Shown: positions 10,415 to 50,032, counted from the stretch's first letter. The stretch is DNA of 64,000 nucleotides from an uncultured Ardenticatenaceae bacterium (GCA_964410625.1 CAYPHY010000009.1:48992-112991), one strand, 5' to 3'. The notes: a model not told the origin generated them from the sequence alone. A program made the numbers and translations.

Positions 10415-10828
10415 CTACTTCTTACTAACCTCAAACACGTTTGCTGACCGAAAGAAACACACATCAAATTCAGCGAAAAAATTCATCTGACCCAGAATCA
10501 AAGGAACTTGCTCAGCGTTAGTCCAAGCAAATGCAAGGCGTACGGGCTTAAACGGAGCAATGGTCGCTGTTAAGATAATCCCCCGTGCTTCAAAATGCGC
10601 CAAGTTGCCAGACAATTGAAGAGAGTATTGCTGTTGTTCCCAAACTGCGCCTAATTCAAGTCCAAGACGAAATGGAAGAACGCTAACGTCGGCTCCTGAA
10701 TCTAATAAGCCGGACACTGTTCGAGATTGATTCTGATATTGAAGTGTTAAGGGGAGTTGAGGTCGAAGGACAACTTCGCTATTCGGCTTTTGAATAGGAA
10801 CGTAAGGAAATTGAAGACGGTCAGCCAT
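10415..10828 (-). CDS. Retropepsin-like (clan AA) aspartic protease domain protein
   Basis: LLDSGADVSVLP contains the D-S-G-A active-site signature. I place the start at the ATG at 10828 (MADRLQFPY...), which overlaps the upstream ORF stop by 8 nt (ATGGCTGA). The gene is low-GC and has no CGGCCG. Confidence 0.7.
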   Translation of the reverse strand: MADRLQFPYVPIQKPNSEVVLRPQLPLTLQYQNQSRTVSGLLDSGADVSVLPFRLGLELGAVWEQQQYSLQLSGNLAHFEARGIILTATIAPFKPVRLAFAWTNAEQVPLILGQMNFFAEFDVCFFRSANVFEVSKK

Positions 10829-11033
10829 CTTTTGCCTTTTCATCATTAAGCATTTGCCACAGTGTTTGGGCAGCTTCTGGCGCATCGTATGGTGACCAAA
10901 CCTCATAAGTTGTTCCAGGTGTGAAGAAAGCTTCACTATCGAGCGCAAGGTCGTTGAGCAAAACTTGCATCACTCGCAGTTTGTCAACACGACTTAGCTT
11001 GTGTAGTGTCTTAAGAAGTTCAACTGAGACCAT
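10821..11033 (-). CDS. Small helical protein, partner of the retropepsin-like protease (antitoxin-like)
   Basis: 70-aa ORF, MVSVELLKTLHKLSRVDKLRVMQVLLNDLA..., translationally coupled to 10415-10828. Confidence 0.55.
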   Translation of the reverse strand: MVSVELLKTLHKLSRVDKLRVMQVLLNDLALDSEAFFTPGTTYEVWSPYDAPEAAQTLWQMLNDEKAKDG

Positions 11034-11168
11034 AGTTCCTCGCCCTCAGGATAGGAGGCTTACTTATGAATGATGTCATTCCGCTAGCCAGATTTCTGCA
11101 ACAGCTATGTGTCTAATTATATCACTAAATCGCCGCTTCTTCTCGTTTCGTATGATAGTCGCTATGAA

Positions 11169-15824: not shown

Positions 15825-15915
15825 GAGTGAATAGTGGTTAGTGGCGAGTGGATAGTGGAGAGTAATTTATTGCTAATCTCTAGCGCCTAATCACTGTCCA
15901 CTACCCTACTAATCA
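15825..15915. repeat. Heptamer-array inverted repeat (NAGTGGN family)
   Basis: Left half: gagtgaa tagtggt tagtggc gagtgga tagtgga gagtaat. Right half: taatcac tgtccac ..., the complement of GTGNNNA words. It lies between the rlmB-like start and the cysS stop. Confidence 0.7.
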
Positions 15916-15921: not shown

Positions 15922-17364
15922 TCAGGCTAATTTCCAGGTTGTACCGTCGGCGCGATCTTCGAGGACGATGCCGAGTTCTTTGAGCTGATCACGGATACGG
16001 TCAGAAGTCGCCCAATCTTTGTTGTTGCGGGCCTGGGCGCGTAGTTCGATGAGTAAGCGTACCAGCCCATCTTCGCGCTCGGCACTGGCCCCGCTCTCCA
16101 TCTGGTCGGGGATGATGCCCAGGACTTCCCCGCCTAGCTCGCGGTAGAGGGCGTCAATTGCCTGGAGCGTGTCCTGGGTCAGCGGCCGATCCTCATTTAG
16201 CAAGGCATTTACCCGGCGGGTGAACTCTTGCAGGACGGCCAATGCGGCCGGGGCGTTAAAATCATCATCCATCTTCTCAATGAACTCCGCCCGTGCCTCT
16301 TCAATGAGTTTCGCCACTTCTTCGTCAACGCCCCCTGCCGGTGCGCGGCGTATGCGGTCACGCACCAGGCTGACGGCACCCCAGATGCGTTGCCATCCTT
16401 TGTGCGCTGCCTCGACTGCTTCATCGGAGAAATCAATCGGATTGCTGTAGTGACTGGACAAAATGAAAGTACGAACCGCCTCCGGCTTCCAACGCTCCAA
16501 CGCCTCCATAATGGTCATCGTATTGCCCAGGCTCTTGCTCATCTTGATCCCATCCAGCGTCAGCGAACCGGTCAGCATCCAGTAGCGGGCAAAGGTGGCA
16601 TCGTGGGCGGCCTCGCTTTGGGCGATCTCACATTCATTGTGGGGGAAGATGTTGTCAATGCCGCCACCATGAATGTCAAACGTTTCGCCCAGATATTTGG
16701 CGGCCATCGCCGAGCATTCGATGTGCCAGCCAGGGAAGCCTTCGCCCCAGGGGCTGGGCCAGCGCAAAATGTGTTCCGGCTCCGCCTTTTTCCAGAGGGC
16801 AAAGTCGGCCGGGTGGTTCTTTTCTTCACGCACCGCCACCCGCGCCCCTTCTTCGAGGTCTTCGATGACACGGCCGCTCAACTTGCCATACTCCGGGAAA
16901 GAGGAAACATCAAAATAGACTGAGCCATCCACCACATAGGCGTGTTCTTCGGCAATCAGCTTTTCGATCATCGCGATCTGTTCAGGCACGTGGGCGCTGG
17001 CGCGGGGGCTGATGTCCGGCCGTTGCACCCCCAACGCATCCATATCGGTGAAATATTGGCGGGTGTAGGTCTCGACCACTTGCATCGGCTTGGCCGACAT
17101 CTGCCGCGCTTTCCTCAGGATGCGATCTTCGCCGGTGTCGAGCATGTGGCCGACATCGGTGATATTTTGGACATACAGCACATCATAGCCGCGATAGCGC
17201 AGATAGCGGACGATGACATCAAAGCTGACATAGGTTTTCGCATGACCAAGATGGCTATAGTCATAGACCGTTGGCCCGCAGACGTAGATGTTGACTTTCC
17301 CTTCCGTCAGCGGCACAAACTCTTCTTTTTGTCGTGTTAATACGTTGTAGATTTTCAATGACAT
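15922..17364 (-). CDS. cysS: Cysteine--tRNA ligase
   Basis: Class I signatures: [17 protein letters not shown] (HIGH-type) and KMSKSLGN. 480 aa, full length. Confidence 0.95.
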
Positions 17365-17380
17365 ATGAACTCCGAAGAAA

Positions 17381-17450
17381 GGATGAGGGATGAAGGCTGA
17401 AGGATGATTTATATTTCCTTCCCTCCCTCAGCCCTCATCCTTCATCCTTA
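17381..17450. repeat. Heptamer-array hairpin (GGATGAR family)
   Basis: ggatgag ggatgaa ggctgaa ggatgat, loop ttatatt, then tccttcc ctccctc agccctc atccttc atcctta. It lies between the cysS start and the PIN-TRAM stop. One-armed copies of the same words occur at 31930-31962 and 32362-32390. Confidence 0.8.
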
Positions 17451-19026: not shown

Positions 19027-20244
19027 ATGATGCAGGAAATAGTCCAACAGGAATTTAAGCAGGTATCAATGAACGGATTTTCACAATTTCCTGGTGAAGC
19101 GGCGTTTCAACGATTGTTGGATAAGCTGCCAGCCGGGGCCTATATGTGTGACGCCGATGGGTTGATTACCTATTTCAATCGGCGTGCTGTTGACGTGTGG
19201 GGGCGGGAGCCAATATTGAACAGCCCTGAAGATCGATTCTGTGGATCGTTTAAGCTATTTGCAACGGATGGCTCACCCATCCCCCATGACCAATGCTGGA
19301 TGGCGCTGGCATTGCGCAACAGCACTGAATACAACGGGTACGAAATCATCATTGAGCGGCCGGACGGCCGCCGCCTTACCGCGCTGGCTTATGCCAGTCC
19401 ACTTTACGATGCGACCGGAAAAATGATGGGAGCGGTGAATGTGCTGGCCGACATCAGCGAACGCAAGCAAGCGGAGGAAGAGCGGGAACGGCTTCTTCTT
19501 GAATTGAACAGAGAACGGACCCAGCTTAAAGAGCTCACTGAAACGCTTGAGGAGCGTGTTTTGAAGCGTACCGCTCAAGTTCATGATTTGGTGTTGGCAC
19601 TTAATCTGGCGGAAGAGCGTGAACGCGGCCGTATGGCGGAGATCCTCCACAACGATTTGCAGCAACTACTCTACAGCCAGTTGATGCGAATGGAAGTATT
19701 GCGTCAGAGCCTCCCCGCCGAGCAAAGCGACACGCTGTCTGAGCTGCTTGCTGGGATGGTTGAACAGCTTAACCAGGCTGTTCACATGACGCGCACGCTT
19801 ACTTCCGAACTGAATCCGCCTAAGATGGAAACTAACTATCTGGTCGAAGCGCTCGAATGGCTGGGCCAGCATATGGAGCAAGCTCATGGCCTGAAGGTCG
19901 TGTTCACCACACACGGTGATCCGCTGATCATCAGCAACGAAGCACGGACGCTCCTCTTGCAAATCGTGAGCGAGTTACTGTTCAACGTTGTCAAACACGC
20001 CCGTACTGATCAGGCCCGCCTCAAACTATCCCGGGACCAAAGTCTCTTCACGATTTCCATTGAGGATAAGGGCGCAGGCTTTGATCTGTCTGCGCTTTCG
20101 GCCAATCCGTTGGAACAAAGTGGCCTGGGCATTCGCAGTGTCTCTGATCGTTTGGCGCTTATTGGCGGCCGTCTTGAGATTGATACGGCTCTCGGAGCCG
20201 GAACAAGCGTAACTATCACGGTCCCCGCTCTCCAACCCTTTTAG
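19027..20244 (+). CDS. PAS-domain sensor histidine kinase, HisKA_3 (NarL-partner type) + HATPase_c
   Basis: PAS (YMCDADGLITYFNRRAVDVWG...), a coiled coil, an H-box (ERERGRMAEILHNDLQQ), and N/G boxes (LLFNVVKHA, DKGAGF, GLGIRSVSDRLALIGG). The ATG at 19027 follows AAGGAAAA. Confidence 0.85.
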   Translation: MMQEIVQQEFKQVSMNGFSQFPGEAAFQRLLDKLPAGAYMCDADGLITYFNRRAVDVWGREPILNSPEDRFCGSFKLFATDGSPIPHDQCWMALALRNSTEYNGYEIIIERPDGRRLTALAYASPLYDATGKMMGAVNVLADISERKQAEEERERLLLELNRERTQLKELTETLEERVLKRTAQVHDLVLALNLAEERERGRMAEILHNDLQQLLYSQLMRMEVLRQSLPAEQSDTLSELLAGMVEQLNQAVHMTRTLTSELNPPKMETNYLVEALEWLGQHMEQAHGLKVVFTTHGDPLIISNEARTLLLQIVSELLFNVVKHARTDQARLKLSRDQSLFTISIEDKGAGFDLSALSANPLEQSGLGIRSVSDRLALIGGRLEIDTALGAGTSVTITVPALQPF

Positions 20245-20355
20245 GCGGACTACAAGAACACTTCCAGAAACCCGATTGCTAGATACTAAAACACATCCTG
20301 TAACTTACTTGATTGTTTATATTTGCAACTTAGTGTCAGTGAAATCAATCGCCTC

Positions 20356-20724
20356 ATGGCTTATCGTATCTTTATCGTTGAAGATCACCCTCGAATGCGC
20401 GAGACTTATAGGCTCTTTATCAGGGCCACCTCTGAGTTGGAAATCTGCGGTATCGTTGCTACCGCGGCCGAGGCCCTGACTGAGATCCCACAGCAAGACC
20501 CCGATCTAGTCATCGTAGACATCTCGCTTCCCGATATGAACGGTGTTGAGCTTACGCGACAGCTTCACCAGCAGTATCCCGCGCTGCCGATCATCATCGT
20601 TTCTGGTCATGAGGCTGGTAGCTTTGCCAGTGCTGTTGCGGAGGCAGGAGCCAGGAGTTACATCAATAAGCAGGCTGCTTATTCGGACCTGATTCCCACT
20701 ATCTATGAAATTTTGGAGAATTAG
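20356..20724 (+). CDS. Stand-alone response-regulator receiver (REC) domain protein
   Basis: RIFIVEDHP...PDLVIVDISLPDMNG...IIIVSGH...KQA. There is no output domain. The stop is followed about 40 nt downstream by a CACGAAT repeat element. Confidence 0.85.
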   Translation: MAYRIFIVEDHPRMRETYRLFIRATSELEICGIVATAAEALTEIPQQDPDLVIVDISLPDMNGVELTRQLHQQYPALPIIIVSGHEAGSFASAVAEAGARSYINKQAAYSDLIPTIYEILEN

Positions 20725-20760
20725 AGATCGAGATTCTTTACTTTTACAGGAATTACGCAA

Positions 20761-20836
20761 TTTTGACACGAATGACACGAATAACACGAATTTTGTCTTC
20801 TATTTCGTGAAATTCGTGTCATTCGTGTCGAAAAAA
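20761..20836. repeat. CACGAAT-family inverted-repeat element
   Basis: TTTTGACACGAATGACACGAATAACACGAATTTT, a short loop, then ATTTCGTGAAATTCGTGTCATTCGTGTCGAAAA. The arms are nearly perfect and built from 9-nt words. Confidence 0.85.
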
Positions 20837-20926
20837 GAGTACGAACTGCATAAACTGTATAAGTCCTGTTTTACTAGAGAGAACCGATTTCTCACTGGAA
20901 ACCCGGTTTCTAAAGCTTCTGCAGTT

Positions 20927-22069
20927 TCACCCCAGAACGCCAGGGGCTTCAGCTAATCCATAAAGAGCACGGGCGTTCGTACCGAGGATCGCTTCGGCCG
21001 CCTTCCATGCCTCTCCCTCCGCCAAAAAGCCATCGCTGATAAACGAATCCAGCACGCGCCCCAGCCCCCAGCGACCCCACCGCGCCGCCAGCCAAAAAAT
21101 CTCCGGCATGGTGAAGGCGTCGGTGGCGAAGAGGAGTTTGCTGAATGGGGCCATGCCCAATATATCACCGAGCATGGTAGGGATTCCCGTGGTGGCAAAG
21201 GGGATAGCCAGCGATAGATCGAGCCAGACATGGGGATAGATGGAAGCCAGATGCGCGGTTTCGCGATAGAAGGGCCACCCGGCGTGGAGCAGTACCAATG
21301 GCGTGTTGGTGTGCTCAATCAGGTGGCGCAGATGGAGGGGGTTGGCCGTTCGCAAGTCGGCGTCACGGTCGCCGAAGCCGGTGTGGAATTGAACCGGTAA
21401 TTGCTGCACGGCCGCTTGTTCCACTGCCAGCCAGAGCAGATAATCGAGAAGTGGTTTGCTATCCAGCCGCACACGGCCGTCCCGTCGCGCCGCTTCCTTC
21501 AGAGGAATATAGGCCGCGTCTGCCTCTGACCGCGAAAATTGCTCAATATCCAGTCCCGTCCGGTAGGCGGCAATGCTCTTTAGCGCGACATAGCCATCCG
21601 CCCGCGCACGGCCGACGGCAGCCACGTAGGAATCAATCAGCGCGGTAAATGATTCCTGTTCAACGATCAGCGATTGGGCCAATGTTTCCAGGCGCAGGAT
21701 CGGCCGTACCGGGCAGGGCAACAACGCACTCATCTCGGCCTGGCCATAGGCTGTCTCCCCCTGATAGCCGTAATCACACAGCACCATACTGATGTTTGCG
21801 TCAATAAACAAGCGTTGCCCCCACGCCTTGTAGTCCTGTTCAGCCCGCGCGGTCAATATGGCCTCTACTGTTGGCGCACAATCGAGCAGTTCCGCCAACC
21901 AGCGGAGCGCGGAGCGAAAAAAGAGGGTATGGGGAACATGCCGGGCGTGAATTTGCGGGTCGGTTGATTCGGTAAACCATTGCCGGAAAGCGGCAGCCTC
22001 GGCCGTCGCCTCCGGTGGCAACAGCGGATGGGCATGGTGATCAACAATCGCAACCGACGACAAATCCAT
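20927..22069 (-). CDS. Amidohydrolase-superfamily (amidohydrolase_2-like) metal-dependent hydrolase
   Basis: 380 aa. N-terminal metal ligands VDHHAHP, with later HTGFGD and LLHAGWP motifs. It lies immediately downstream of the GS-like gene on the same strand. Confidence 0.75.
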   Translation of the reverse strand: MDLSSVAIVDHHAHPLLPPEATAEAAAFRQWFTESTDPQIHARHVPHTLFFRSALRWLAELLDCAPTVEAILTARAEQDYKAWGQRLFIDANISMVLCDYGYQGETAYGQAEMSALLPCPVRPILRLETLAQSLIVEQESFTALIDSYVAAVGRARADGYVALKSIAAYRTGLDIEQFSRSEADAAYIPLKEAARRDGRVRLDSKPLLDYLLWLAVEQAAVQQLPVQFHTGFGDRDADLRTANPLHLRHLIEHTNTPLVLLHAGWPFYRETAHLASIYPHVWLDLSLAIPFATTGIPTMLGDILGMAPFSKLLFATDAFTMPEIFWLAARWGRWGLGRVLDSFISDGFLAEGEAWKAAEAILGTNARALYGLAEAPGVLG

Positions 22070-26853: not shown

Positions 26854-27031
26854 TTTTTGACACGAATTGCACGAATGGACACGAAGTTGATGTGGGTTTG
26901 GGGTTTTACCACGGATTGATACGGATTAGACGGATGAACACGGATTTTATTGTATGGAATCCGTGAAAATCCGTTTCATCCGTAAAAATCCGTGGTCTAT
27001 TCGTGAAATTCGTGTCATTCGTGTCGAAAAA
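26854..27031. repeat. CACGAAT-family inverted repeat carrying a second element nested in its loop
   Basis: Outer arms: TTTTTGACACGAATTGCACGAATGGACACGAA and TTCGTGAAATTCGTGTCATTCGTGTCGAAAAA. Confidence 0.8.
26909..26995. repeat. CACGGAT-family inverted repeat nested inside the 26854-27031 element
   Basis: CCACGGATTGATACGGATTAGACGGATGAACACGGATTTT, loop attgtatgg, then AATCCGTGAAAATCCGTTTCATCCGTAAAAATCCGTGG. Confidence 0.8.
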
Positions 27032-27045
27032 TTTTTCTTGGAACC

Positions 27046-27831
27046 ATGTCGAGTAACGGGAATTTGCCTTATCCGGGGACGCAGGCGGTGCGGCGGGCGA
27101 TGGCGCTGTTGAAGGCGTTTGATGATGCTCGGCCGTCGTGGGGCCTATCTGATCTGGCACGTGAGGCGGGGCTGAACAAGACGACTGCCTTCCGCTTGCT
27201 CTCTGCGCTGGAGAGCGAGGGGATGGTGGCCCGCGGCCAGGATGGGGAGAGCTATGTCTTGGGGCCGGAGTTGATCGTGATGGGCGGCCGTGCCTTGCGG
27301 GCGAATAATCTGCGGGCGGTGGCGCGGCCGTATCTGGAAGCGCTGGCGGAGCAGACGGGGGAGACGGCTTCGCTGGAAGTACGTGCCGGGCGGGAGGTGC
27401 TGGTGGCGGATGAGGTGATGGGGGAGTACTTGATGAGTGGCGTGCAGACGATTGGCAGCCGCTGGCCGCTTCATGCCACTTCGACCGGACTGGCGATCCT
27501 GGCCTTTATGCCGCAGGAGGAGCGGGAGGGGTTGGTGGAGCAGCCGCTGGCGGCCGTGACCCCGCACACGATCACCGATCCGCTACAGCTATGCCAGGAG
27601 CTAGAGGCGATCTGTCGCCGGGGGTATGCGGTGGCGGATGAGGGGTTGGAGATTGGGCTGGTGGCCATTGGCGCACCGCTGCATAACCATGATGGCGCGG
27701 TCACGGCGGCGATCAGCATCGCCGGGCCGAAGTTGCGGTTGAATCCTACCCGCGTCGCCGAGATTGGGGGGATGGTGCGGGCGGCGGCAGAGGAGATTTC
27801 AGGACGGTTGGGGTACCGGCCGAGGGGATAG
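27046..27831 (+). CDS. IclR-family transcriptional regulator
   Basis: N-terminal wHTH (RAMALLKAFDDARPSWGLSDLAREAGLNKTTAFRLLSALESEGMV) and a C-terminal IclR effector domain (YAVADEGLEIGLVAIGAPL...AAISIAGP). Confidence 0.9.
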   Translation: MSSNGNLPYPGTQAVRRAMALLKAFDDARPSWGLSDLAREAGLNKTTAFRLLSALESEGMVARGQDGESYVLGPELIVMGGRALRANNLRAVARPYLEALAEQTGETASLEVRAGREVLVADEVMGEYLMSGVQTIGSRWPLHATSTGLAILAFMPQEEREGLVEQPLAAVTPHTITDPLQLCQELEAICRRGYAVADEGLEIGLVAIGAPLHNHDGAVTAAISIAGPKLRLNPTRVAEIGGMVRAAAEEISGRLGYRPRG

Positions 27832-27842
27832 CCGCTTGGTGC

Positions 27843-28094
27843 TCAGTGGTGCACCGGCTCCAGACTGACCGGCGTGATGGTCGCGGTACAGCGCTTGAAG
27901 CCAGGGAGCAAGAATTGTTGAATCGCCTGCCACTCATCAGCTTCGACGATGTAGAATATTTTGTGTTCGGCATTGGCCCCGTAGCGGCCGAGTAATTTGA
28001 TACCGGGTACTGTCGGATCGAACAACGAATTTGATCCACCCTCCCCAAGGGGGCATGTTTCCGGGGTGTGGACTTGCGTGATGTGGAATAACAT
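27843..28094 (-). CDS. Small hypothetical protein
   Basis: I prefer the start at MLFHITQVHTPETCP (ATG at 28094). The longer track ORF begins inside the ACGCAGAT word array. Confidence 0.45.
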   Translation of the reverse strand: MLFHITQVHTPETCPLGEGGSNSLFDPTVPGIKLLGRYGANAEHKIFYIVEADEWQAIQQFLLPGFKRCTATITPVSLEPVHH

Positions 28095-28111
28095 GTTTTG
28101 TCTCCTCAGAG

Positions 28112-28153
28112 TTACGCAGATGACGCAGATCAAACGCTGATTACGCGGATTTC
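28112..28153. repeat. ACGCAGAT/ACGCGGAT word array (one-armed)
   Basis: tacgcagat gacgcagat caaacgctgat tacgcggat. Inverse-orientation copies lie at 43964-44001 and 53346-53376. Confidence 0.65.
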
Positions 28154-28320
28154 ATTTGTAGTGACGGCCGCTGTCCATTGTGACTCCCTTGCTAGTGGAA
28201 CTGACAAAAGCGGCGCATTCACCGTGTGCGCTAGTATAGCGTGTGTTCCCGGCATATCAATGGTATGGATGTGAAGATTGTGGGAAGGGGTGAGGAAGAT
28301 TTGGGGTTGGAGTATCGTTC

Positions 28321-28533
28321 TTATTCTGCTGTTGGCCGGTCTTTCTTTATTTCGGCAATAATTTCGTCGAGGGTGAGACGGCCGAAGCGTTGCTCCCGTT
28401 CTTCGGTGTAGTTGCCGTAACCTGTGGTGTATTGGTTGAGGAAGCGTAGTGTATTGACAATGCCCATTTCACGCAGCAAAAGCCTTATGGCCTCTTGAGT
28501 TATTTCGGTCAATGGTCTTGGTTCGGCTATCAT
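28321..28533 (-). CDS. Small hypothetical protein (antitoxin-like, 70 aa)
   Basis: MIAEPRPLTEITQEAIRLLLREMGIVNTLRFLNQYTTGYGNYTEEREQRFGRLTLDEIIAEIKK. Its ATG overlaps (ATGA) the end of a start-less reading frame at 28531-28684. Confidence 0.5.
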   Translation of the reverse strand: MIAEPRPLTEITQEAIRLLLREMGIVNTLRFLNQYTTGYGNYTEEREQRFGRLTLDEIIAEIKKDRPTAE

Positions 28534-28684
28534 GGTTCTAGTTCGTCAATCCGTTCAACAGGTGTGACAACATGAATCTTTAAACTGGTGACAACTTTGC
28601 CCGATATAGCAGCATGAATGTCTAGTAATGTCCTGTTTTGTCTAGTGTTTGAAAATAGGAGCTGGAATAAGAGACCGGTTAGTG

Positions 28685-31429
28685 TTACTGCAACAAGGTA
28701 ACCATGTCGCGGGCATCGGAATGATCAGGGAAGAGTGCAATAAAATCTGTTAGATCATCTATAGCCATCTGAATCAAGTGCAGTGGAGGCTTTTCAAAAA
28801 GTCCGATTTGATATAACCTACGTGCTTCTGTCGTCTGGTTCGCAGCAAGATAGTATAAGGCGAGGTTAAATCCATTTAGCCAGTCATGAGGATTTGCTTG
28901 ATAGGCTTCTTTCGCTTTTCGTATTGCTTCTGATAGATCTACCATTGCTTTTGTCGTTTGTGCCAGGGTTAAGTAGGTTATACCACGTTGATAATAATTC
29001 CAGTCTGATCCTTCAAGTCCAACAACGAATTCAAAATCGGCAAGTGCAGCTTCGTACAGTTTCATTAATCGGTAGCTCTCTCCGCGACTAGAAATGGCAG
29101 AAATTTCGTTTGGATCAATTGCAACAACATAATTGTAATCAACTAATGCCAGTTCTAGCTCTCCTTTATCCCTATAGACATTACCTCGATTGTAGTAGGC
29201 AGCAACCATTTCTGAGTCAAGTCCAATAGCCTTGTTGAAATCGGTCAAAGCTTCATCCAGCTTTCCCAGCTTTGCGTGAATAAAGCCCCTGTTAGCGTAT
29301 GTAGCTGCCACTTCTGGGCGAAGTTTAATTGCGTGGTTGTAGTCAGCTAGGGCCTCGGCTAGTCTTCCCTGTTCAGCATAGCTAAGCCCCCGATTATTGT
29401 AGGCAGCAGCAAAGTCTGGGTCAACCTCAATTGCGCAGTTGTAGTCAGTAATGCTTCGGTCTACTTCTCCCAACTTGGCATAAGTATTGCCTCGATTGTA
29501 GTAGGCAAACGCATATTTAGGGTCAAGTGCTATAGCACGGTTGTAATCAACTAGTGCTTTGTCTAGATTCCCCTGTTTGACATGCACGTTGCCCCTGTTG
29601 TAATAAGCAGTAGCATCATTCGGATTGAGGGCAATAGCGCATTCATGATCGGCCTGGGCTAACTCCCACTTTCCTTGATCGGCATATGCGAGACCACGAT
29701 TGTTGTAAGCGATAGCAAGTTCTGGATCAAGCGTAAGCGCGCGGTTGTAATCAAGTAATGCGAGTTCTAGCATCCCCAAGTCTTTATAAACATTCCCCCG
29801 ATTGTTATAGGCGATGGCGTACTCCCCGTTAACTTCGATAGCACGAGTGTAATCAGCTAAAGCCTGATCCAATTTCCCTTGTATTTTATAGATCTTACCT
29901 CGGTTGCTATAAGCTGTAGCGTCTCCAGGTTCGAGTAAGATAGCATGATTGTAATCCATCAGAGCCAGGTCTAGTTTTCCCTGGTCTTCGTAGGCTAGAC
30001 CACGGTTGTTATAAAGTCCATGATGGAGATTAAGCATCAATGCAGTAGTATATAGGCGAATAGCTGTTTCGATCTTGCCCTGGTTACGGATAGTAAACGC
30101 CAAGTTAAATAAAGCCCACATGTGAGGAATAGCGCTTGGGTGGAGACGTTGTAATCGTAAGAACCGCCAGATGCGTCGATGATGAAGCAAAAAGGCAACA
30201 ATTTGTTCTGTGGCATGGTTAGGGGTGAGACGCCCTTCTGTGAGAACATCAGGATAGATAATTTGATCTGACCTTGAGATAATATCAAATTGGGCAAGGT
30301 AGGCTAGGTCACTGCTTAAGCGCCTATTTGCAAACCAGGGAATAAGCCAACGACGCTCATAGCTCCATAGCTTTGCGGCATATTGAAGTAATAAGGTTGT
30401 GTAACTAGGGATCCTGGCCGCGTAGAAAGTATCCAAGGCTGCAAACAGGTAACGAGTAGCAGGTCTGTGCTTTTGGATATCGTTGCGTACATTAGCCCAA
30501 GTCTGGGCTAAGCTTTCGCGAACGAAGCGTTGAGCGGTTTCTAGATCTATATAGGTCCATCCGCTAGTATCGAGTCGACGGAAATTGAGCAAGGTCAGCT
30601 CGGGTGTGCCGTCGCGGCCTTCAATGAAAGCTTGGCGAGCCGTATCATCGAGTTGGAGTTCATAGAGATCAGTGGCGTTTTCTACCAGGTATCGGGTTTG
30701 AAGCTCGTCGAGAGGGGGAAGCTCGAGGAAGAGAAAGTGTTGTCGTTCAAGCCACTTCTTTTGTGCTACGGTTAGCTGATCAAGACGAGCGGTTGCGATA
30801 ATGAATGCAGCCTTGACTTGGTCTAACACTGCAAGGGCAGCGGCGAGTTGGTCAAGATCGGAATCGGCAAAGGATTGGGGCAGGTCTTCAAGCAGAAGGA
30901 GGATCGACAAATGGGGGTGGAGAGAGCGATCCAGAGCTTGGCGAAGACTCTCAACGTTGAGGAAGCGAAATTCGGGGGCGGGTTCGTAAAGGCAATTTTC
31001 GAAGACTACTTCTTGGGCGATAGCACGGCGGATAAGTTCGGCGGCTTCACGGCTTTTGCCGATTTTCATGCGGCCGGTGATGAGGATGCGGTGGTGGCGA
31101 TAGAGGAGGTCGGGATGGGTAATTTGGCGATCAATCCAGTTGATGGCGGCGCTGCGGCCAAAGCGTTGCATGAGTTCATCGAGGGTGATGGGGCGGAGTG
31201 GGTTGGTGAGGAGGGGGTCGGGAGTACGGTCGAATAATCTATCGAGGAGTTGAAGACCATCGTTGAAAGCGGAAAGTGCAGCAAGGACAGCAGGGACGAC
31301 CACACCAAGAAGGAAAAGCGCGTTTCTCCAGGGTTGGGGGAGCAGGGATGGAACGAACCAGCTTATACTAAATAGTAAAGCGGATGGGATTATGATGATA
31401 AGGGCAAGGTGAAGCAATGGCCGGTTCAT
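28685..31429 (-). CDS. Membrane-anchored P-loop NTPase (STAND/AAA-like) with about 11 C-terminal TPR repeats
   Basis: Two N-terminal TM helices (aa ~5-25 and 37-55), Walker A ITGRMKIGKS (nt 31052-31075) and Walker B-like LSILLLLEDL. A helical region is followed by tandem 34-aa TPR units (A.A/YNNRG..Y...G....A..DYN.AI.L.P) across nt ~28880-30000. Confidence 0.8.
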   Translation of the reverse strand: MNRPLLHLALIIIIPSALLFSISWFVPSLLPQPWRNALFLLGVVVPAVLAALSAFNDGLQLLDRLFDRTPDPLLTNPLRPITLDELMQRFGRSAAINWIDRQITHPDLLYRHHRILITGRMKIGKSREAAELIRRAIAQEVVFENCLYEPAPEFRFLNVESLRQALDRSLHPHLSILLLLEDLPQSFADSDLDQLAAALAVLDQVKAAFIIATARLDQLTVAQKKWLERQHFLFLELPPLDELQTRYLVENATDLYELQLDDTARQAFIEGRDGTPELTLLNFRRLDTSGWTYIDLETAQRFVRESLAQTWANVRNDIQKHRPATRYLFAALDTFYAARIPSYTTLLLQYAAKLWSYERRWLIPWFANRRLSSDLAYLAQFDIISRSDQIIYPDVLTEGRLTPNHATEQIVAFLLHHRRIWRFLRLQRLHPSAIPHMWALFNLAFTIRNQGKIETAIRLYTTALMLNLHHGLYNNRGLAYEDQGKLDLALMDYNHAILLEPGDATAYSNRGKIYKIQGKLDQALADYTRAIEVNGEYAIAYNNRGNVYKDLGMLELALLDYNRALTLDPELAIAYNNRGLAYADQGKWELAQADHECAIALNPNDATAYYNRGNVHVKQGNLDKALVDYNRAIALDPKYAFAYYNRGNTYAKLGEVDRSITDYNCAIEVDPDFAAAYNNRGLSYAEQGRLAEALADYNHAIKLRPEVAATYANRGFIHAKLGKLDEALTDFNKAIGLDSEMVAAYYNRGNVYRDKGELELALVDYNYVVAIDPNEISAISSRGESYRLMKLYEAALADFEFVVGLEGSDWNYYQRGITYLTLAQTTKAMVDLSEAIRKAKEAYQANPHDWLNGFNLALYYLAANQTTEARRLYQIGLFEKPPLHLIQMAIDDLTDFIALFPDHSDARDMVTLLQ

Positions 31430-31493
31430 GGTGGTCTGTTTTGAGTTGTCCTCCCTGGGGGATTATGGCGGGAATGGAGGGAATTTGCAAGGG

Positions 31494-31570
31494 GTGGCAG
31501 GTGGCAAGTAGCAGGTGGCAGTAAGCGGTAATCGGTGTTTGGTGATTGGTGGTGGGTGAGGGGTGGGATA
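31494..31570 (+). repeat. Heptamer array (GTGGCAG family, 11 in-phase units)
   Basis: gtggcag gtggcaa gtagcag gtggcag taagcgg taatcgg tgtttgg tgattgg tggtggg tgagggg tgggata. It lies in the divergent spacer between the STAND gene and the terminase island. Confidence 0.8.
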
Positions 31571-31653
31571 CGCGGGTTGGCAACCTGCGCTGCGAGAGGT
31601 GCAGAGTGCGGGTGCGTCGGAGGGAGGTGGGGGAGTAGAATGGGGGAGGGAAT

Positions 31654-31688
31654 GGTTAATTGTCAATTGTGAATTGTTAATTGTGAAT
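31654..31688 (+). repeat. Heptamer array (TGTNAAT family)
   Basis: ggttaat tgtcaat tgtgaat tgttaat tgtgaat. Similar arrays precede each island ORF (31965-32000, 32390-32420). Confidence 0.75.
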
Positions 31689-31944
31689 GGAGGCGGGGAT
31701 GGTTAGGGGTGAGGAGGTGGATGTGGAGTTGGAGGTGGCAGCGGCGCGGGGGGTGTTGCGGCGGTTGGTGGAGATGATGGCGGATCAGCGGAATCCGACG
31801 CTGGTGATGGCGTTGAGCCGGGAGATTGCGCGGCAGGTGGAGGTGATTGGGGGGTTGTTGGGGAGGAAGCGAGATGGGGGAGAGGGAGAGGCGTGGTTGA
31901 TGGGGGTTGTGGAGGAGGTGTTGGGGGAGAAGGATGAGGGATGA
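31687..31944 (+). CDS. Hypothetical protein of the G-rich island
   Basis: 85-aa ORF in a stretch where random stops are expected about every 20 codons. 26 of its first 30 codons end in G and none in C. No motif recognised. Confidence 0.5.
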   Translation: MEAGMVRGEEVDVELEVAAARGVLRRLVEMMADQRNPTLVMALSREIARQVEVIGGLLGRKRDGGEGEAWLMGVVEEVLGEKDEG

Positions 31945-31998
31945 AGGATGAGGGATGAGGGGGGAGAATGGTTAATGGTGAATTGTTAATTGTGAACG

Positions 31999-32382
31999 GT
32001 GATGAGGGGGGTGCTGATGGGGGAGGAAGGGCTTTCGACGAAGCAGGTGTTGGTTTTGAATGCGTTGTTGGCGGGGAAGTTGAAGCGGGAGGCGGCGGAG
32101 ATGGCGGGGGTGACGCCAAGGACGGTTTCGCGGTGGATGCAGTTGCCGGTGTTTCGGGCGGCTTTGAACCGAGAGGCGGCGGAGTTGAGTATGGTGACAT
32201 CGTATTTGTCGGCGCGGGCGGTGGTGAAGGCGTTGGAGCAGTTGATTGCGCTGCTGGAGGGGGATAGTAAGGAGACGTTGAAGGTGAAGGCGGCGATTGG
32301 GGTGTTGCAGCATCATCCGGCGGTGTGGTTGGGGCCGATTGATGCGGAAGTGGTGAAGAGAAGGATGAGGGATGAAGGATGA
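31999..32382 (+). CDS. HTH-domain protein, small-terminase-like by position
   Basis: LSTKQVLVLNALLAGKLKREAAEMAGVTPRTVSRWMQLPVFRAAL is an HTH motif, and the gene lies directly upstream of the TerL-like gene. Start ambiguous: GTG at 31999, or ATG at 32002 or 32017. Confidence 0.55.
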   Translation: MMRGVLMGEEGLSTKQVLVLNALLAGKLKREAAEMAGVTPRTVSRWMQLPVFRAALNREAAELSMVTSYLSARAVVKALEQLIALLEGDSKETLKVKAAIGVLQHHPAVWLGPIDAEVVKRRMRDEG

Positions 32383-32428
32383 AGGGTGAGAATTGTGAAT
32401 TGTCAATTGTTAATGGTGAAGTGGGGGG

Positions 32429-34162
32429 GTGGACATGGAAGATGGGAAGGTTCGGGAAGCGTTGCGGCGGGTGTTGGGGGATGTGGGGCGGTTTTCGCGG
32501 TTTGTGTTGGGAGTGAGGTTGCGGGGATACCAGGCGGAGCCGTTGCGGGAGATCGTGGACTCGATCTTGCGGAAGGAGGGGCGGGAGTTTTTGTTGGTGT
32601 TTCCGCGGCAGGCGGGGAAGAATGAGGCGGTGGCGCAGTTGTTGGCGTATTTGTTGGTGTTGTTGCAGGGACGAGGAGGGAATGTAGTGTTTGCGGCGAT
32701 TGGAGATGGCGTAGGGCGCGGGATGCGGCGGTTGGAGGAGCATTTGGAGAATCCGCTGACGAGGGGACGGTGGGGACGACAGCGACGGCCGGAGGCAAGG
32801 GTGCTGGGGAAGGCGGCGGTGGTGTTTTTGAGTTCGCATCCGTCGGCGAAGGCACGAGGGGAGACGGCGCATCATTTGTTGATTATTGATGAGGCACAGG
32901 ACCAGTATAGCCATCATGTGGAGGCGGTGTTTACGCCGATGCGGGCGGCGAATAATGCGACGGCGGTGTATATGGGGACGGTACGGACGACGAGTGATTT
33001 TTTGTGGCGGAAGAAGCTGGAGCTGGAACGGTTGGAGGAAGGGGATGGGGTACGGCGGGTGTATCTGGTGTCGCCAGAGGAGGTGGTGGCGGAGAATGGG
33101 GATTATGGGCGGTTTTTGGCGGGGCAGATTGCGAAGTATGGGGAGAGGCATCCGATTGTACAGGCGGAATATTTTTTGCGGCCGATGGATAGGGAGGGTG
33201 GGTTGTTCCCGGAGGAACGGCGGCGGTTGATGAGGGGGGTGCATTATCGGAGAATGGGGAGATTAGAGATTGGTGATTGGGAGCGTGCAGAGGAGCAGAG
33301 GAGCAGGGGGGCGGAGGAGAGAATGGTTAATGGTGAAGGGTTAACGGTGAATGGTCAATTGGAGAGTGGACGGTTGTATGTGGCGGCGGTGGATGTGGCG
33401 GGGCAGGATGAGGGGGCGAGCGGGGAGTGGCAGGTGGCAGGTGGCAAGTGGCAGGTAGCAGGGGAAGAATTGGTGAATCCGGGGAGGGATTGGACGGTGG
33501 CGACGGTTTTTGAGGTTAGGGAGGGGGCAGGTAGCATTGGGCCGGGGTATTGGGCGGTGGATGTGTTTGTGGATCATGGGGGGCGGCATTTTCAGGAAGT
33601 GGGAGGACGGCCGAGCCTGGCGGCGCGGCTGTTAGGGTTTTTACGGCATTGGGAAGTGAGTGGGGTGATTGTGGATGCGTCGGGGGTGGGGCAAGGGTTG
33701 GCGGATTGGCTGATGGCGGAGATGGGGAAGCAGCGGGTAATCGCGTACCATTTTGCGGGGCGGGGGCAGAAGGCGATGTTGGGGAGCCGGTTCTTGAGTT
33801 TGATCGAGACGAACCGGTTTAAGTATTGGTGTGGCGATGAACATGAGGTGGGGAGTGATGGGTGGTGGTTTTGGGAGCAGGCGGCGCGTTGTTCGTACCA
33901 TCTGGCGCCGAGGGGGTTGTTTGAACGGGATTTGCAGTGGGGCGTGGGGGAAAACCAGATGGTGGAGACACCGTTGGGACGGGTGAGGGTACATGATGAC
34001 CGGTTGATGTCGGCGGCGTTGATTGCGGAGTATGATTTTTTGGCGCGACAGGGACGAGTGATGATGGGAATGGCACGGAGTGAGATGGTGCGGCCGGTTG
34101 ATCCATTGGAATTGGAGAGTAAGGGGGATGGATTGGGTAGTAGTAGTAGTAGGCGGTCATAG
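32429..34162 (+). CDS. Phage terminase large subunit-like ATPase-nuclease
   Basis: Walker A VFPRQAGKNE (about 32600-32626) and Walker B/catalytic LLIIDEAQDQ (about 32869-32905). RNase-H-like nuclease acidic motifs: YVAAVDVAGQDEG (about 33374-33415), VIVDASGVGQGLADWL and VHDDRLMSAAL. The 577-codon ORF is open despite G/A/T-rich composition. Confidence 0.8.
   Translation: MDMEDGKVREALRRVLGDVGRFSRFVLGVRLRGYQAEPLREIVDSILRKEGREFLLVFPRQAGKNEAVAQLLAYLLVLLQGRGGNVVFAAIGDGVGRGMRRLEEHLENPLTRGRWGRQRRPEARVLGKAAVVFLSSHPSAKARGETAHHLLIIDEAQDQYSHHVEAVFTPMRAANNATAVYMGTVRTTSDFLWRKKLELERLEEGDGVRRVYLVSPEEVVAENGDYGRFLAGQIAKYGERHPIVQAEYFLRPMDREGGLFPEERRRLMRGVHYRRMGRLEIGDWERAEEQRSRGAEERMVNGEGLTVNGQLESGRLYVAAVDVAGQDEGASGEWQVAGGKWQVAGEELVNPGRDWTVATVFEVREGAGSIGPGYWAVDVFVDHGGRHFQEVGGRPSLAARLLGFLRHWEVSGVIVDASGVGQGLADWLMAEMGKQRVIAYHFAGRGQKAMLGSRFLSLIETNRFKYWCGDEHEVGSDGWWFWEQAARCSYHLAPRGLFERDLQWGVGENQMVETPLGRVRVHDDRLMSAALIAEYDFLARQGRVMMGMARSEMVRPVDPLELESKGDGLGSSSSRRS
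33255..33464 (+). repeat. Word-array repeats (GAGATTG, GGTTAATGGTGAA, GTGGCAG families) inserted in frame in the TerL-like gene
   Basis: The encoded peptide is MGRLEIGDWERAEEQRSRGAEERMVNGEGLTVNGQLESG ... GEWQVAGGKWQVAGEE. It flanks the first nuclease acidic motif. The DNA words are identical to those of the intergenic arrays. Confidence 0.75.
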
Positions 34163-34239
34163 AACACCGATTGAAATCGGCGTCTGACACAGGAAACCCG
34201 TTGAAACGGGTTAGCATTGATTAGGCAATTAAAAGTTTG

Positions 34240-34963: not shown

Positions 34964-35040
34964 ACACGGATCAAACGGATCAATACGGATTTTTGCCAGG
35001 AAATCCGTAAAAATCTGTCAAATCTGTGTAATCCGTGGTT
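34952..35040. repeat. CACGGAT-family inverted-repeat element
   Basis: AACCACGGATAGACACGGATCAAACGGATCAATACGGATTTTT, loop gccagg, then AAATCCGTAAAAATCTGTCAAATCTGTGTAATCCGTGGTT. Confidence 0.8.
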
Positions 35041-35060
35041 AATTCCGAACGCAGGTTTCT

Positions 35061-37622: not shown

Positions 37623-37643
37623 GGCTGTCTCCAAAAATTATGA

Positions 37644-37685
37644 CTTGTGAATTATGAATTGTGAATGGCTAATGGGCCATTCAAA
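37644..37685. repeat. Heptamer array (ATTNTGA family) in the leuS 5' region
   Basis: cttgtga attatga attgtga atggcta atgggcc attcaaa. Confidence 0.65.
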
Positions 37686-43197: not shown

Positions 43198-43268
43198 ATC
43201 CACGAATCTGCACGAATTTTCACGAATGAGACTTATAATTCGTGTAGATTCGTGTAAATTCGTGGATC
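43198..43268. repeat. CACGAAT-family inverted-repeat element
   Basis: gatCACGAATCTGCACGAATTTTCACGAATgagacttataATTCGTGTAGATTCGTGTAAATTCGTGgatc. Confidence 0.85.
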
Positions 43269-43406
43269 CTTAGGAGGATTATTATTATCAATGCCTGAGA
43301 TTGAACTTAACGAATTTTCACGAATGAGACTTATAATTCGTGTAGATTCGTGTAAATTCGTGGATCCTTAGGAGGATTATTTTTATCAATGCCTGAGATT
43401 GAACTT
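43212..43406 (+). repeat. Near-perfect 98-nt tandem duplication (2 x 97 nt, 1 mismatch)
   Basis: Copy 1 is 43212-43308 and copy 2 is 43310-43406. Each contains part of the CACGAAT element, the AGGAGG RBS and the first 6 codons (MPEIEL) of the GNAT gene. Confidence 0.9.
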
Positions 43407-49927: not shown

Positions 49928-50032
49928 TGATGGTGGGTAAGCGGCAGGTGGCAAGTATCAGGTGGCGAGTGGCAGGTATGCCATTCACAATTGACCATTA
50001 ACCATTTACCGTTCACCATTAACCATTCGACA
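49928..50032 (+). repeat. 15 in-phase heptamers: TGGCNNG half-array followed by TTNACCA half-array
   Basis: tgatggt gggtaag cggcagg tggcaag tatcagg tggcgag tggcagg tatgcca ttcacaa ttgacca ttaacca tttaccg ttcacca ttaacca ttcgaca. It lies between the two permease genes. Confidence 0.85.

Follow-up and report, generated by a model that had tools for sequence, protein, structure and literature searches.

An orphan large terminase gene within a strand-fixed G-over-C island of an uncultured Ardenticatenaceae bacterium: a possible prophage remnant

Cryptic prophage remnants and orphan terminases are packaging genes that persist without portal, capsid or integrase genes, and such remnants occupy strain-variable regions that carry accessory or defence-type genes, short unassignable ORFs and a non-host composition. 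The locus described here, which lies in a 64-kb stretch of DNA of an uncultured Ardenticatenaceae bacterium (64,000 nt, analysed as a whole and referred to below as the window), has all of these features. Unlike such remnants, it is anomalous not through a shift in GC content but through the near-total exclusion of C from the free sites of one strand, and its large terminase (TerL) is fully intact. In tailed phages, the large terminase (T4 gp17, D6E, Sf6 gp2, HK97) combines an ASCE ATPase and an RNase-H-like nuclease in a two-domain fold, with conserved Walker A/B motifs and acidic nuclease residues. The TerL of the window shares both the fold and the residues; its family, however, is usually partnered by a Cys3-His zinc-ribbon protein and not by a recognised small subunit (TerS).

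Two described systems approach the composition of the locus. A combined C→T and A→G deamination pattern is known from the exposure of single-stranded DNA, for example on the mitochondrial H strand. The H/L asymmetry of vertebrate mitochondria follows the physical strand regardless of gene direction, has this same C→T and A→G form and reduces one base at four-fold sites to no more than a few per cent, all of which is also seen in the island. In contrast to mitochondria, the island is a 3-kb chromosomal segment, probably derived from tailed dsDNA phages, in a background of 55–60% GC; moreover, G rather than T takes most of its sites, and A exceeds T at four-fold sites. To our knowledge, an asymmetry of this level is matched only by the most asymmetric organelle genomes, and a GC skew of 0.5–0.8 with 1% C at four-fold sites (1% G in relatives) is far above anything described in bacterial chromosomes or tailed dsDNA phages. 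The RcGTA-type clusters of Alphaproteobacteria form small GC-skew peaks which are ascribed to codon choice, are co-oriented with replication and accompany a complete structural cluster (PMC9836097). The island resembles them in that chromosomal phage-derived packaging or head genes use G over C in their codons, but its skew is more than 10 times larger and extends to spacers and a reverse-strand gene, and structural genes are absent (compare PMC9836097).

Extent and strand character of the skew

The composition of the whole window is G.294 and C.257; that of positions 31430–34165 is G.469, C.121, A.188 and T.222. In 200-nt windows, the GC skew of 31400–34200 ranges from 0.44 to 0.83, against approximately ±0.1 in the rest of the window. 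At the four-fold sites of the three + strand ORFs of the island we found G.80, C.013, A.13 and T.055 (window background: G.376, C.385, A.10, T.14), and the third-position skew, (G3−C3)/(G3+C3), reaches 0.87–0.98 in these ORFs. In 42 of the 44 other long ORFs it lies between −0.20 and +0.20, the two outliers being an IclR gene (+0.53) and a STAND-like gene (+0.40 on the physical strand). An earlier sequence-only reading had drawn attention to the segment, and its counts were exact: G27/C4 in 32401–32460, G31/C6 in 33001–33060 and G20/C17 in 16021–16080, with 26 of the first 30 codons of ORF 31687–31944 ending in G and none in C, and, for 30 codons of the STAND-like gene (31160–31249), 19 ending in C and one in G.

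The same reading had delimited the segment as 30850–34165. The right end held; the left did not, since the skew core (G>>C on the + strand, from skew and codon profiles) occupies about 31010–34165 and fades gradually leftwards across the STAND-like gene to about 30000. The right edge is abrupt and coincides with the TerL stop (34162). Composition is normal again in the boundary region 34163–34228, which contains two small hairpins (34167–34180 and 34195–34212), and is followed by short ORFs without a family match until the LeuRS gene at 35061. An assembly or sequencing artefact was rejected, because the Logan contigs L051 (27004–31520) and L070 (31492–32954) are 100% identical to the window; these independent contigs break inside a GGTGGCA array, where they overlap by 29 nt. 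Local replication skew, named beforehand as an outcome that would undermine the claim, was likewise rejected, given a 1-kb background of about ±0.1 and gene-level third-position skews within ±0.2.

The bias follows the physical strand, as had been proposed, and selection on codons or tRNAs was rejected because spacers, genes of both orientations and amino-acid composition are all affected. Codons 41–140 of the STAND-like gene, which lies on the − strand, have a + strand third-position skew of 0.83–0.85, as extreme as that of TerL; the three non-coding spacers of the island have G.41–.46 and C.02–.10; and amino-acid usage is shifted (E, G, V and M up; A, P, T and D down). At the two-fold sites of the + strand ORFs, 84% of pyrimidines are T and 87% of purines are G, and in the N-terminal part of the STAND-like gene 88% of purines are A and 66% of pyrimidines are C, so that both patterns read as C→T and A→G on the + strand. 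The C:T and A:G ratios are equal at two-fold and four-fold sites. The excess of A over T at four-fold sites is not predicted by simple deamination, and a pure C→T bias of the ssDNA-phage type is by itself a poor fit, as T is depleted there; an added GC pressure is needed. Prediction of G-quadruplexes, suggested by the sequence-only reading, revealed one canonical motif in the island against 7.4 ± 2.3 in shuffles, a depletion which disfavours selection for such structures.

Genes of the island and the strain-specific segment

Judging by its modelled fold, its PHROG profile and its phage relatives with portal and protease-capsid genes downstream, the 577-aa ORF on the + strand (32429–34162, from a GTG at 32429; the deposited protein has 575 aa) is a true large terminase. 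Terminase homology, the lack of which had been put forward as a reason to abandon the proposal, was found with PHROG_2 ("terminase large subunit", 7.9e-10); Pfam, NCBIfam and PDB-sequence profiles gave no match. The best Foldseek matches to the AF2 model (pLDDT 77.6) were the large terminases T4 gp17, D6E, Sf6 and HK97 and the G20c nuclease domain, the ATPase domain matching T4 gp17 and P74-26, and the nuclease domain matching G20c with a target-normalised TM-score of 0.65–0.68. In an alignment of 18 homologues, the columns of Walker A (RQAGKNEA, aa 60–67, 32606–32629) and Walker B (LLIIDEAQD, aa 150–158, 32876–32902) are invariant or nearly so, and residues D322, D327, D416, D523 and D524 of the nuclease acidic motifs (33383–33412, 33671–33697 and 33989–34006) are invariant; the window TerL retains every invariant column. 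Profile, structure and alignment thus agree with the ATPase-nuclease with intact motifs recognised earlier. There are 481 homologues at 50–56% identity, and the nearest cultured relative, that of Bacillus phage vB_BboS-125, is only 27.5% identical.

A random stop is expected once per 22 codons, in accordance with the earlier estimate, which gives a probability of about 2e-12 for 577 codons without a stop. In addition, none of the 28 CAG, CAA and CGA codons of TerL that are one C→T change from a stop has been converted. Both results favour the purifying selection already suggested, acting while the bias built up, and TerL was presumably working during that time. Two in-frame insertions were found in the gene, (i) one of 33 aa in the ATPase-nuclease linker (33254–33352), made of period-8 GCAGAGGA and heptamer GAATGGT arrays, which is missing from all 17 aligned homologues and modelled with low confidence, and (ii) GEWQVAGGKWQVAG (33422–33463), encoded by a (GTGGCAG)n heptamer array. 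A 513-aa antisense "shadow" ORF on the − strand (31703–33244) is not a gene; it is open because the complement of NNG codons is CNN, which is never a stop.

The first + strand ORF of the island, orfA (31687–31944, 85 aa), had been described as an unknown protein. In most related loci a conserved Cys3-His zinc-ribbon protein is encoded ahead of TerL, and orfA probably corresponds to the C-terminal half of this protein (hhalign E 5.5e-5, probability 66%, 74 collinear columns), so that it appears to be a truncated homologue; no convincing remnant of the zinc-ribbon half was detected upstream in any frame. The second ORF (32017–32382, +), directly upstream of TerL, had been read as a TerS-like HTH protein. 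Its position stands, and its weak likeness to small terminases comes from matches to PHROG 2538 (8e-8) and Pfam HTH_28 (4.8e-4, below the cut-off), but a conserved partnership with TerL proteins of this family was not borne out: it is unrelated to the zinc-ribbon family and has no counterpart in any of about 60 related loci. A search of 5.8 billion proteins returned only itself and one weak match, and by these comparisons it is an additional, lineage-specific gene.

The divergent intergenic region (31430–31686; G.455, C.105) consists mostly of G-rich heptamer arrays of GGTGGCA, GGTGATT and GAATTGT. Their unit families also occur elsewhere in the window, but all of the approximately 18 TRF rows within the island have more G than C on the + strand, in contrast to a mixed orientation outside.

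On the − strand, positions 28685–31429 encode the STAND-like protein, a 914-aa membrane-anchored P-loop NTPase with TPR repeats, and the skew of the gene falls towards the TPR part. The label STAND, given by the sequence-only reading, was not borne out, since the strong Pfam matches are to TPR only, the putative P-loop, GRMKIGKS, and the putative Walker B motif, LLLLED, are recognised by eye only, and neither NACHT/NB-ARC in Pfam nor any PADLOC family was matched. The N-terminal part has just two known homologues, one in a host context and one on a short contig, both balanced in G3/C3 and neither near a terminase; none of the approximately 60 TerL loci carries the gene. A conserved STAND–terminase system, one of three explanations offered earlier, was therefore rejected, as co-occurrence is lacking in both directions. 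The gene lies within a strain-specific segment: a related strain (L050) is 91% identical to the window up to position 28533, after which it carries a different, NACHT-like gene on the + strand. This replacement gene has a milder skew of the same sign, as does the host IclR gene beside the island (G3.60, C3.19), in the related strain as well, which hints at a regional effect.

Homologues of portal, major capsid protein (MCP) or other capsid, adaptor, tail and integrase genes were not found in the 64-kb window, nor was any tRNA gene, and no att site or direct repeats bracketing the segment were identified, in line with the earlier description. Rfam and terminator scans around the island revealed nothing informative.

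Related terminase loci

Approximately 60 related loci were collected, nearly all from Ardenticatenales/Promineifilaceae, the latter being abundant wastewater filaments, and in most of them a zinc-ribbon ORF precedes TerL. They fall into three groups: (i) phage contigs with a physical-strand skew, reverse-strand integrases included, whose polarity is opposite to that of the island, (ii) orphan copies that lack skew and lie in conserved host synteny, and (iii) mosaic blocks with sharp limits and a skew that equals the island's, one of which begins at a tRNA-Ser gene.

A portal gene follows TerL in L002, L053/54, L056, L057, L059–61, L055 and L026 (phrog_10963, 1.7e-22), and the same relatives carry a prohead protease–MCP fusion downstream (NF045541, 2e-39). 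These relatives thus belong to the tailed dsDNA phages and not to ssDNA elements. Of the 12 phage-context contigs profiled, 11 have a whole-contig GC skew of −0.13 to −0.25, with 89–100% of 1-kb windows negative. At four-fold sites, the reverse-strand integrase of L002 (PF00589, 2.3e-28) shows G.62 and C.17, as opposed to G.16 and C.62 in the + strand genes of this contig, and the integrase of L026 and an EAD7 ORF of L057 likewise follow the physical strand. The layout of L057 matches that of the window, with reverse-oriented conflict-type genes just upstream of the zinc-ribbon ORF and TerL.

Nine orphan loci share the order bactofilin-like gene, zinc-ribbon ORF and TerL, in host synteny and without skew, which shows that the skew is not a property of the TerL protein family. 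Such a family trait was rejected on a survey of 40 loci, where TerL skew ranged from −0.37 to +0.16 and third-position skew never exceeded +0.18. As regards the mosaic blocks, in L004 a skew of +0.1 gives way, immediately past tRNA-Ser (19632–19719), to values of −0.36 to −0.63, and the structural genes of this block have four-fold G.835; in L039 a 1.8-kb block with four-fold C.82 and G.01 is flanked by unskewed, co-oriented genes of the capsid cluster. Searches of metagenome and viral collections with codon-specific DNA and peptide patterns revealed no close or G-polar relative of the module, and a search for G-polar phages through the adaptor-like protein returned only contigs that were already known.

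Origin of the asymmetry

From the observed bias and its physical-strand nature, the identity of TerL, the skew of the phage relatives, the mosaic blocks and the strain-specific left junction, we propose, with the chances for and against about evenly balanced, that the segment is a strain-specific prophage remnant whose strand asymmetry, of the deamination type, was inherited from a source element. This source would be a tailed phage of temperate lifestyle, or an element resembling one, from Promineifilaceae (Chloroflexota). The surviving part may be its packaging end, that is, the truncated gene of the TerL partner, the extra HTH gene and the intact TerL, with the reverse-oriented accessory NTPase-TPR gene upstream, the portal, capsid and all else having been lost. 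The G>>C bias would be a mutational signature of that element, one strand of which underwent far more C→T and A→G changes, and this deamination pattern, combined with the high-GC pressure of these genomes, may have driven free sites to G. The bias presumably arose before or during mobile life, through asymmetric replication that exposed one strand in single-stranded form. Among the three explanations of the sequence-only reading, the element remnant is the best fit, with replication that is strand-asymmetric and with tailed dsDNA phages rather than ssDNA elements as relatives.

Phage-homologous genes, a strain-variable segment and a foreign composition are all present, as expected of a prophage remnant, but neither an integrase nor an att/tRNA junction occurs in the 64-kb window. 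Several further observations speak against this origin. Every phage-context TerL examined is C-rich on the coding strand, in contrast to the G-rich TerL of the window, and the magnitude of the island skew is approximately 2.5 times that of the phage-context contigs; the L004 fragment alone shares both polarity and magnitude with the island, and its terminase is not seen on that fragment. As no close relative of the terminase module was found in genome, viral or metagenome collections, no donor was identified, and in a neighbour-joining tree the window TerL forms a long branch beside the host-orphan clade, outside the phage clade. Finally, the skew fades through the NTPase-TPR gene with no junction at its left limit, four-fold A exceeds T, and the host-type heptamer arrays are all G>C inside the island.

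Some of these points accord with strand-asymmetric mutation in place, which we nevertheless regard as rather unlikely. Here, a rightward polymerase would set out from varying positions within the STAND-like gene, halt at a fixed stop at 34165–34230 and on each passage displace the + strand, the deamination of which (C→T, A→G) would follow; the agent could be RNA polymerase with self-reinforcing R-loops on a G-rich transcript, or a unidirectional start of strand-displacement replication. The leftward decay of the skew and its sharp stop at the TerL end beside two hairpins are consistent with this mechanism, as are the single physical polarity of divergent genes, the milder same-sign skew in the flanking IclR and LAM genes and in the different gene of the related strain, the uniform G-rich orientation of host-type arrays (mixed outside), and a transition signature that fits + strand exposure. 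However, only one weak match to a rightward promoter was detected (30255–30283), at a frequency no higher than in shuffles, and nothing comparable is seen in any other gene of the window. The GGTGGCA array of the intergenic region retains unconstrained Cs, one per unit, which argues against a strong C-depleting process still active in place. Moreover, there is a sharp difference in skew between adjacent genes of one orientation in L039, and the L004 block begins at a tRNA, for which imported blocks are the better fit, and most phage relatives are C-rich on the coding strand, the opposite of what deamination of the non-template strand would leave. A self-reinforcing form of this mechanism, in which rightward transcription or strand-displacement synthesis of the terminase cassette exposes the + strand of a strand-specific hypermutation zone and deamination raises the G content of the transcript, with further stabilisation of R-loops, is in our view unlikely; if true, it would link a domesticated terminase to a bacterial, evolutionary-scale analogue of the R-loop skew of immunoglobulin switch regions and CpG islands.

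Selection for a strand free of C (or of G), whether on DNA or on RNA, appears improbable. It might act to eliminate every palindromic restriction site that contains G/C, to evade a nuclease or deaminase specific for one base, or to keep the mRNA weakly structured, and the predicted folding of the island mRNA is indeed weaker (−35.5 versus about −50 kcal/mol per 150 nt at equal GC; −23 kcal/mol per 150 nt in the 5′ part of the STAND-like gene). Both polarities in the relatives would be expected if asymmetry alone mattered, and biased spacers also agree with such selection. Nonetheless, sites or motifs as targets are not expected to purge nearly all free C (1.3% at four-fold sites) or to shift amino-acid usage, an RNA-level target leaves the opposite mRNA composition of reverse-strand genes unexplained, the agreement of two-fold with four-fold sites in their C:T and A:G ratios resembles a mutational equilibrium, and G-quadruplex motifs are depleted.

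A domesticated GTA-like or satellite-like packaging module with G-over-C codon choice as part of its domestication, for which the invariant residues of TerL, the nine orphan zinc-ribbon–TerL pairs in host synteny and the skew peaks of RcGTA clusters (PMC9836097) could be cited, is equally improbable, given that it is the conserved orphan copies which lack skew, that the window copy is strain-specific, without a close relative, with a truncated partner gene and a TerL interrupted by two repeat arrays, that no structural genes of a head–tail cluster were found within the 64 kb, and that the skew is more than tenfold that of PMC9836097 and reaches spacers and the reverse gene, so that codon choice is not its source.

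If the prophage-remnant picture holds, a lineage of Chloroflexota phages would exist in which strand-fixed bias occurs with either polarity and is exchanged as mosaic blocks, and such a bias would point to an unusual replication or DNA-damage regime. The island would also be a natural experiment on the limit of recoding, in which the invariant columns of TerL were kept while nearly all free C was lost. The pair of zinc-ribbon protein and TerL is itself widespread, unannotated and conserved in host synteny in Promineifilaceae, which makes it a candidate for a domesticated packaging module.

Extent and strand specificity of the skew

The G-over-C excess was confirmed and is striking, and every base and codon count quoted in the sequence-only reading was reproduced exactly on recount. 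Base fractions within 31430-34165 were G.469, C.121, A.188 and T.222 (whole window: G.294, C.257). In 200-nt windows, the GC skew rose from approx. 0.15-0.3 over 30000-31000 to 0.53-0.83 over 31400-34100, and to the right of 34165 it dropped to 0.2, then to approx. 0, inside 100-200 nt. The third-position skew, (G3-C3)/(G3+C3), was 0.97, 0.98 and 0.87 in the three plus-strand ORFs of the island, i.e. orfA (31687-31944), an HTH ORF (32017-32382) and the large terminase gene terL (32429-34162). It lay within +/-0.20 in 42 of the 44 other long ORFs of the window; the two outliers were an IclR regulator gene (+0.53) and the divergent minus-strand NTPase-TPR gene (28685-31429; +0.40 on the physical strand). 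Four-fold degenerate sites carried G.80, A.13, T.055 and C.013 in the island ORFs (window background: G.376, C.385, A.10, T.14), and leucine was encoded 63 times by TTG and 13 times by CTG. The island was also the most extreme skewed segment when set against 826 kb of related DNA.

An assembly artefact was ruled out as the source of the skew, since Logan contigs of an independent assembly (SRR11702770) matched 27004-31520 and 31492-32954 at 100% identity. The two contigs join within a GGTGGCA array and overlap by just 29 nt; this array is strand-asymmetric, and therefore the relative orientation of both sides is still fixed.

Codon or tRNA selection was likewise ruled out, because the spacers, the reverse gene and amino-acid usage are all shifted. 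The three island spacers contained G.41-.46 and C.02-.10. Four-fold sites in codons 1-193 of the NTPase-TPR gene were C.56, G.076, T.295 and A.067, and the plus-strand third-position skew of its codons 41-140 (0.83-0.85) was level with that of terL, declining to approx. 0.45 (codons 160-420) and approx. 0.25 (codons 440-620). The sole two homologues of its N-terminal part that were found elsewhere have balanced G3/C3. Compared with its relatives, TerL is enriched in E, G, V and M and poor in A, P, T and D, whose codons require C or avoid G.

At two-fold sites, pyrimidines were 84% T and purines 87% G in the plus-strand ORFs; in the reverse gene, purines were 88% A and pyrimidines 66% C. In both gene directions this pattern reads as C->T and A->G on the plus strand. 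The C:T (approx. 1:5) and A:G (approx. 1:6) ratios were equal at two-fold and four-fold sites, as expected for mutational equilibrium. Purines made up 93% of island four-fold sites, an excess that would result if the GC pressure on these genomes acted against a "T sink"; A exceeded T at these sites, which simple deamination does not predict.

Genes and repeat arrays of the locus

The 577-aa ORF had been correctly recognized as a terminase from the sequence. It matched PHROG_2 ("terminase large subunit") at 7.9e-10, with no match in Pfam and NCBIfam profile searches, and 481 full-length homologues were found at 50-56% identity. All invariant columns of an 18-sequence alignment are kept, including Walker A, Walker B and the acidic nuclease residues. 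The best structural matches of its AlphaFold model (pLDDT 77.6) were the T4 gp17, D6E, Sf6, HK97 and PhiV-1 terminases and the G20c nuclease domain; the closest cultured-phage protein was that of Bacillus phage vB_BboS-125 (27.5% identity). The purifying selection proposed earlier was borne out for the period in which the bias accumulated: all 28 CAG, CAA and CGA codons, each one C->T change from a stop, are intact even though free Cs are down to 1.3%, which argues for selection on TerL during the build-up. Two in-frame insertions on the plus strand (33254-33352 and 33422-33463) consist of tandem repeat arrays, are absent from all 17 aligned homologues and form the low-confidence regions of the model. 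A (GTA)5 microsatellite (34137-34152) encodes the last codons (SSSS) right before the stop, and the C-terminal tail exceeds that of the homologues in length.

Most related loci have, ahead of terL, a gene whose 140-230-aa product bears a Cys3-His zinc ribbon at its N terminus. The orfA product, previously described as an unknown protein, aligned collinearly with the C-terminal half of this protein (hhalign E 5.5e-5, probability 66%) and lacks the zinc ribbon itself. The HTH ORF, for which a small-terminase character had been suggested, hit a small-terminase PHROG (8e-8). It is missing from every related locus and has next to no homologues among 5.8 billion proteins. The minus-strand gene product has a TM, P-loop and TPR layout and gave no match in NACHT/NB-ARC and PADLOC searches; its proposed joint system with the terminase module is unsupported. 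The reported absence of portal, capsid and integrase genes held across the 64 kb, where no portal, capsid, adaptor, tail or integrase homologues of the related phages and no tRNA genes were found. Between terL and the LeuRS gene there are only short ORFs with no family matches. Two long antisense frames were rejected as genes: the 513-aa frame at 31703-33244 (-) is open because NNG codons become CNN on the opposite strand and CNN cannot be a stop, and the 129-aa frame at 30848-31237 (+) is an artefact of opposite-strand NNC codon use and should not be annotated.

Short tandem arrays of 7-10-nt units occupy many intergenic regions over the whole window (e.g. 5917-5953, 8665-8694, 15826-15863, 17379-17447, 37636-37666 and 49939-50027), resemble cyanobacterial STRR repeats and are often paired as inverted arrays, such as AAGGATG x4 beside TCCCTCA x3. 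A 98-nt unit with AATTCGTGTA-type sub-repeats is directly repeated twice at 43212-43406 (98% identity). The families GGTGGCA, GAATGGT/TTAATGG, AATTGTG and GGATGAG are common to the island and the rest of the window; arrays outside occur in both orientations, whereas inside (31465-33462) all of the approx. 18 TRF rows have G>C on the plus strand. A composite unit of approx. 69 nt (GGATGAG array, G run, GAATGGT/AATTGTG array) is present four times: ahead of each plus-strand ORF (31627-31695, 31929-32011 and 32360-32442) and in frame within terL, at the ATPase-nuclease linker (33298-33366), where a GGAGG...ATG motif could provide a candidate internal start.

Terminase loci in related genomes

The adjoining lysine 2,3-aminomutase clusters with Promineifilum proteins at at least 90% identity, and nearly all TerL relatives come from Ardenticatenales/Promineifilaceae MAGs. 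Over 26887-28533, the window shares 91% identity with a related strain (L050), which then carries a different plus-strand NACHT-like gene with milder skew of the same sign as the island; the NTPase-TPR gene and everything after it are therefore strain-specific. The IclR gene (27046-27831; G3.60, C3.19) has the same values in L050, where its nucleotide sequence is 91% identical and the substitutions are symmetric; its skew is old, milder and of the same sign as that of the adjoining island. Similar ACGGATT/AATCCGT-type arrays (26908-26996 and 34966-35049), which include an inverted match of 20 nt between 26898-26917 and 35030-35049, flank the entire IclR-to-LeuRS interval, which roughly equals the positive-skew region.

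In the phage-context loci (L002, L026 and L053-L061), terL is followed by a portal gene (phrog_10963) and a prohead protease-capsid fusion. Most of these contigs have a whole-contig GC skew of -0.13 to -0.25, with A above T, a polarity opposite to that of the island. The reverse-strand tyrosine integrase gene of L002 (four-fold G.62, C.17; plus-strand genes G.16, C.62), the L026 integrase gene and the L057 EAD7 ORF all track the physical strand, which makes strand-fixed skew a trait of this phage group. In L057 (4357-7483), the zinc-ribbon ORF and terL are immediately preceded by a conflict-system cassette of reverse-oriented genes, the EAD7 ORF and a clostripain (C11)/PD40 gene, which mirrors the NTPase-TPR gene in position.

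Mosaic blocks with skew as extreme as that of the island were found in two further loci. In L004, directly after tRNA-Ser (GGA) (19632-19719), the skew changes from +0.1 to between -0.36 and -0.63, and the phage structural genes have four-fold G.835 and C.095 on the coding strand; these genes (within 19632-21491) belong to an integrated element that matches the island in polarity and magnitude and extends past the locus end. In L039 (1615-3331), two minus-strand genes with four-fold C.82 and G.01 form a skewed block of approx. 1.8 kb inside a portal-capsid-tail cluster, the co-oriented genes on either side being balanced. A second terL copy (L048, 10001-11558; its MAG also holds L022) sits in a 20-kb region with a skew of approx. 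-0.2 to -0.38 and matches the query only as several separate reading-frame pieces, an apparent pseudogene or the product of long-read frameshift errors.

Nine orphan loci (L001, L005, L008, L013, L015, L031, L034, L035 and L038; terL at approx. 10001-11500 in the long loci) contain a bactofilin-like gene, the zinc-ribbon ORF and terL in constant order between ordinary host genes, with a skew of approx. 0. The bactofilin-like gene is divergent, and L008 and L034 also have a LiaF-like gene. The pair of zinc-ribbon ORF and terL is a candidate domesticated terminase of Promineifilaceae.

Origin of the island

The best explanation, to which we attach about an even chance, is that the island is what remains of a prophage, derived from a Chloroflexota phage lineage with strong strand asymmetry. 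In the simplest reading, 28534-34165 would be the leftover of a temperate phage-like element, whose core (31010-34165) would retain the element's own strand-asymmetric mutational signature.

Several observations fit import poorly and keep alive the main rival, a doubtful one, namely strand-specific mutation in place, in which the plus strand would be displaced rightward, starting at varying points but stopping at a fixed one (34165-34230). Every phage-context terL has the opposite polarity, and the skew here is approx. 2.5 times larger; in an NJ tree, the TerL of the window sits next to the orphan clade on a long branch; and the collections searched yielded neither a donor nor a close relative. 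The skew fades gradually across the NTPase-TPR gene, IclR (in L050 too) and the L050 gene share its sign in milder form, and the island arrays belong to host-window families, yet are all in the G-rich orientation. Against an in-place process, a promoter scan gave no convincing candidate, unconstrained Cs remain in the intergenic GGTGGCA array, and the skewed blocks of relatives end at gene edges or a tRNA.

RcGTA clusters, which sit at peaks of G-over-C skew (PMC9836097), offer a parallel for a GTA-like reading of the terminase module. Against such a reading, it is the conserved orphan copies that lack skew, and the copy in the window looks degraded around an intact terL. Selection at the nucleotide level, e.g. 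purging of all G/C palindromes, would account for both polarities but is unlikely to have removed free C almost totally; the weaker mRNA folding predicted for the island is a consequence of uncertain relevance. Selection for G-quadruplexes is disfavoured, as G4 motifs are depleted in the island.

Under the prophage-remnant explanation, prolonged single-strandedness of one strand would lead to C->T and A->G changes there, whatever the gene direction. Such single-strandedness is the established explanation of the mitochondrial H/L asymmetry, which shows the same gene-direction-independent pattern on one strand; by this analogy, we infer that these phages may replicate with one strand long single-stranded. 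Cryptic prophage fragments that carry an orphan terminase are already known; what is unusual in the island and its relatives is the size of the strand asymmetry.
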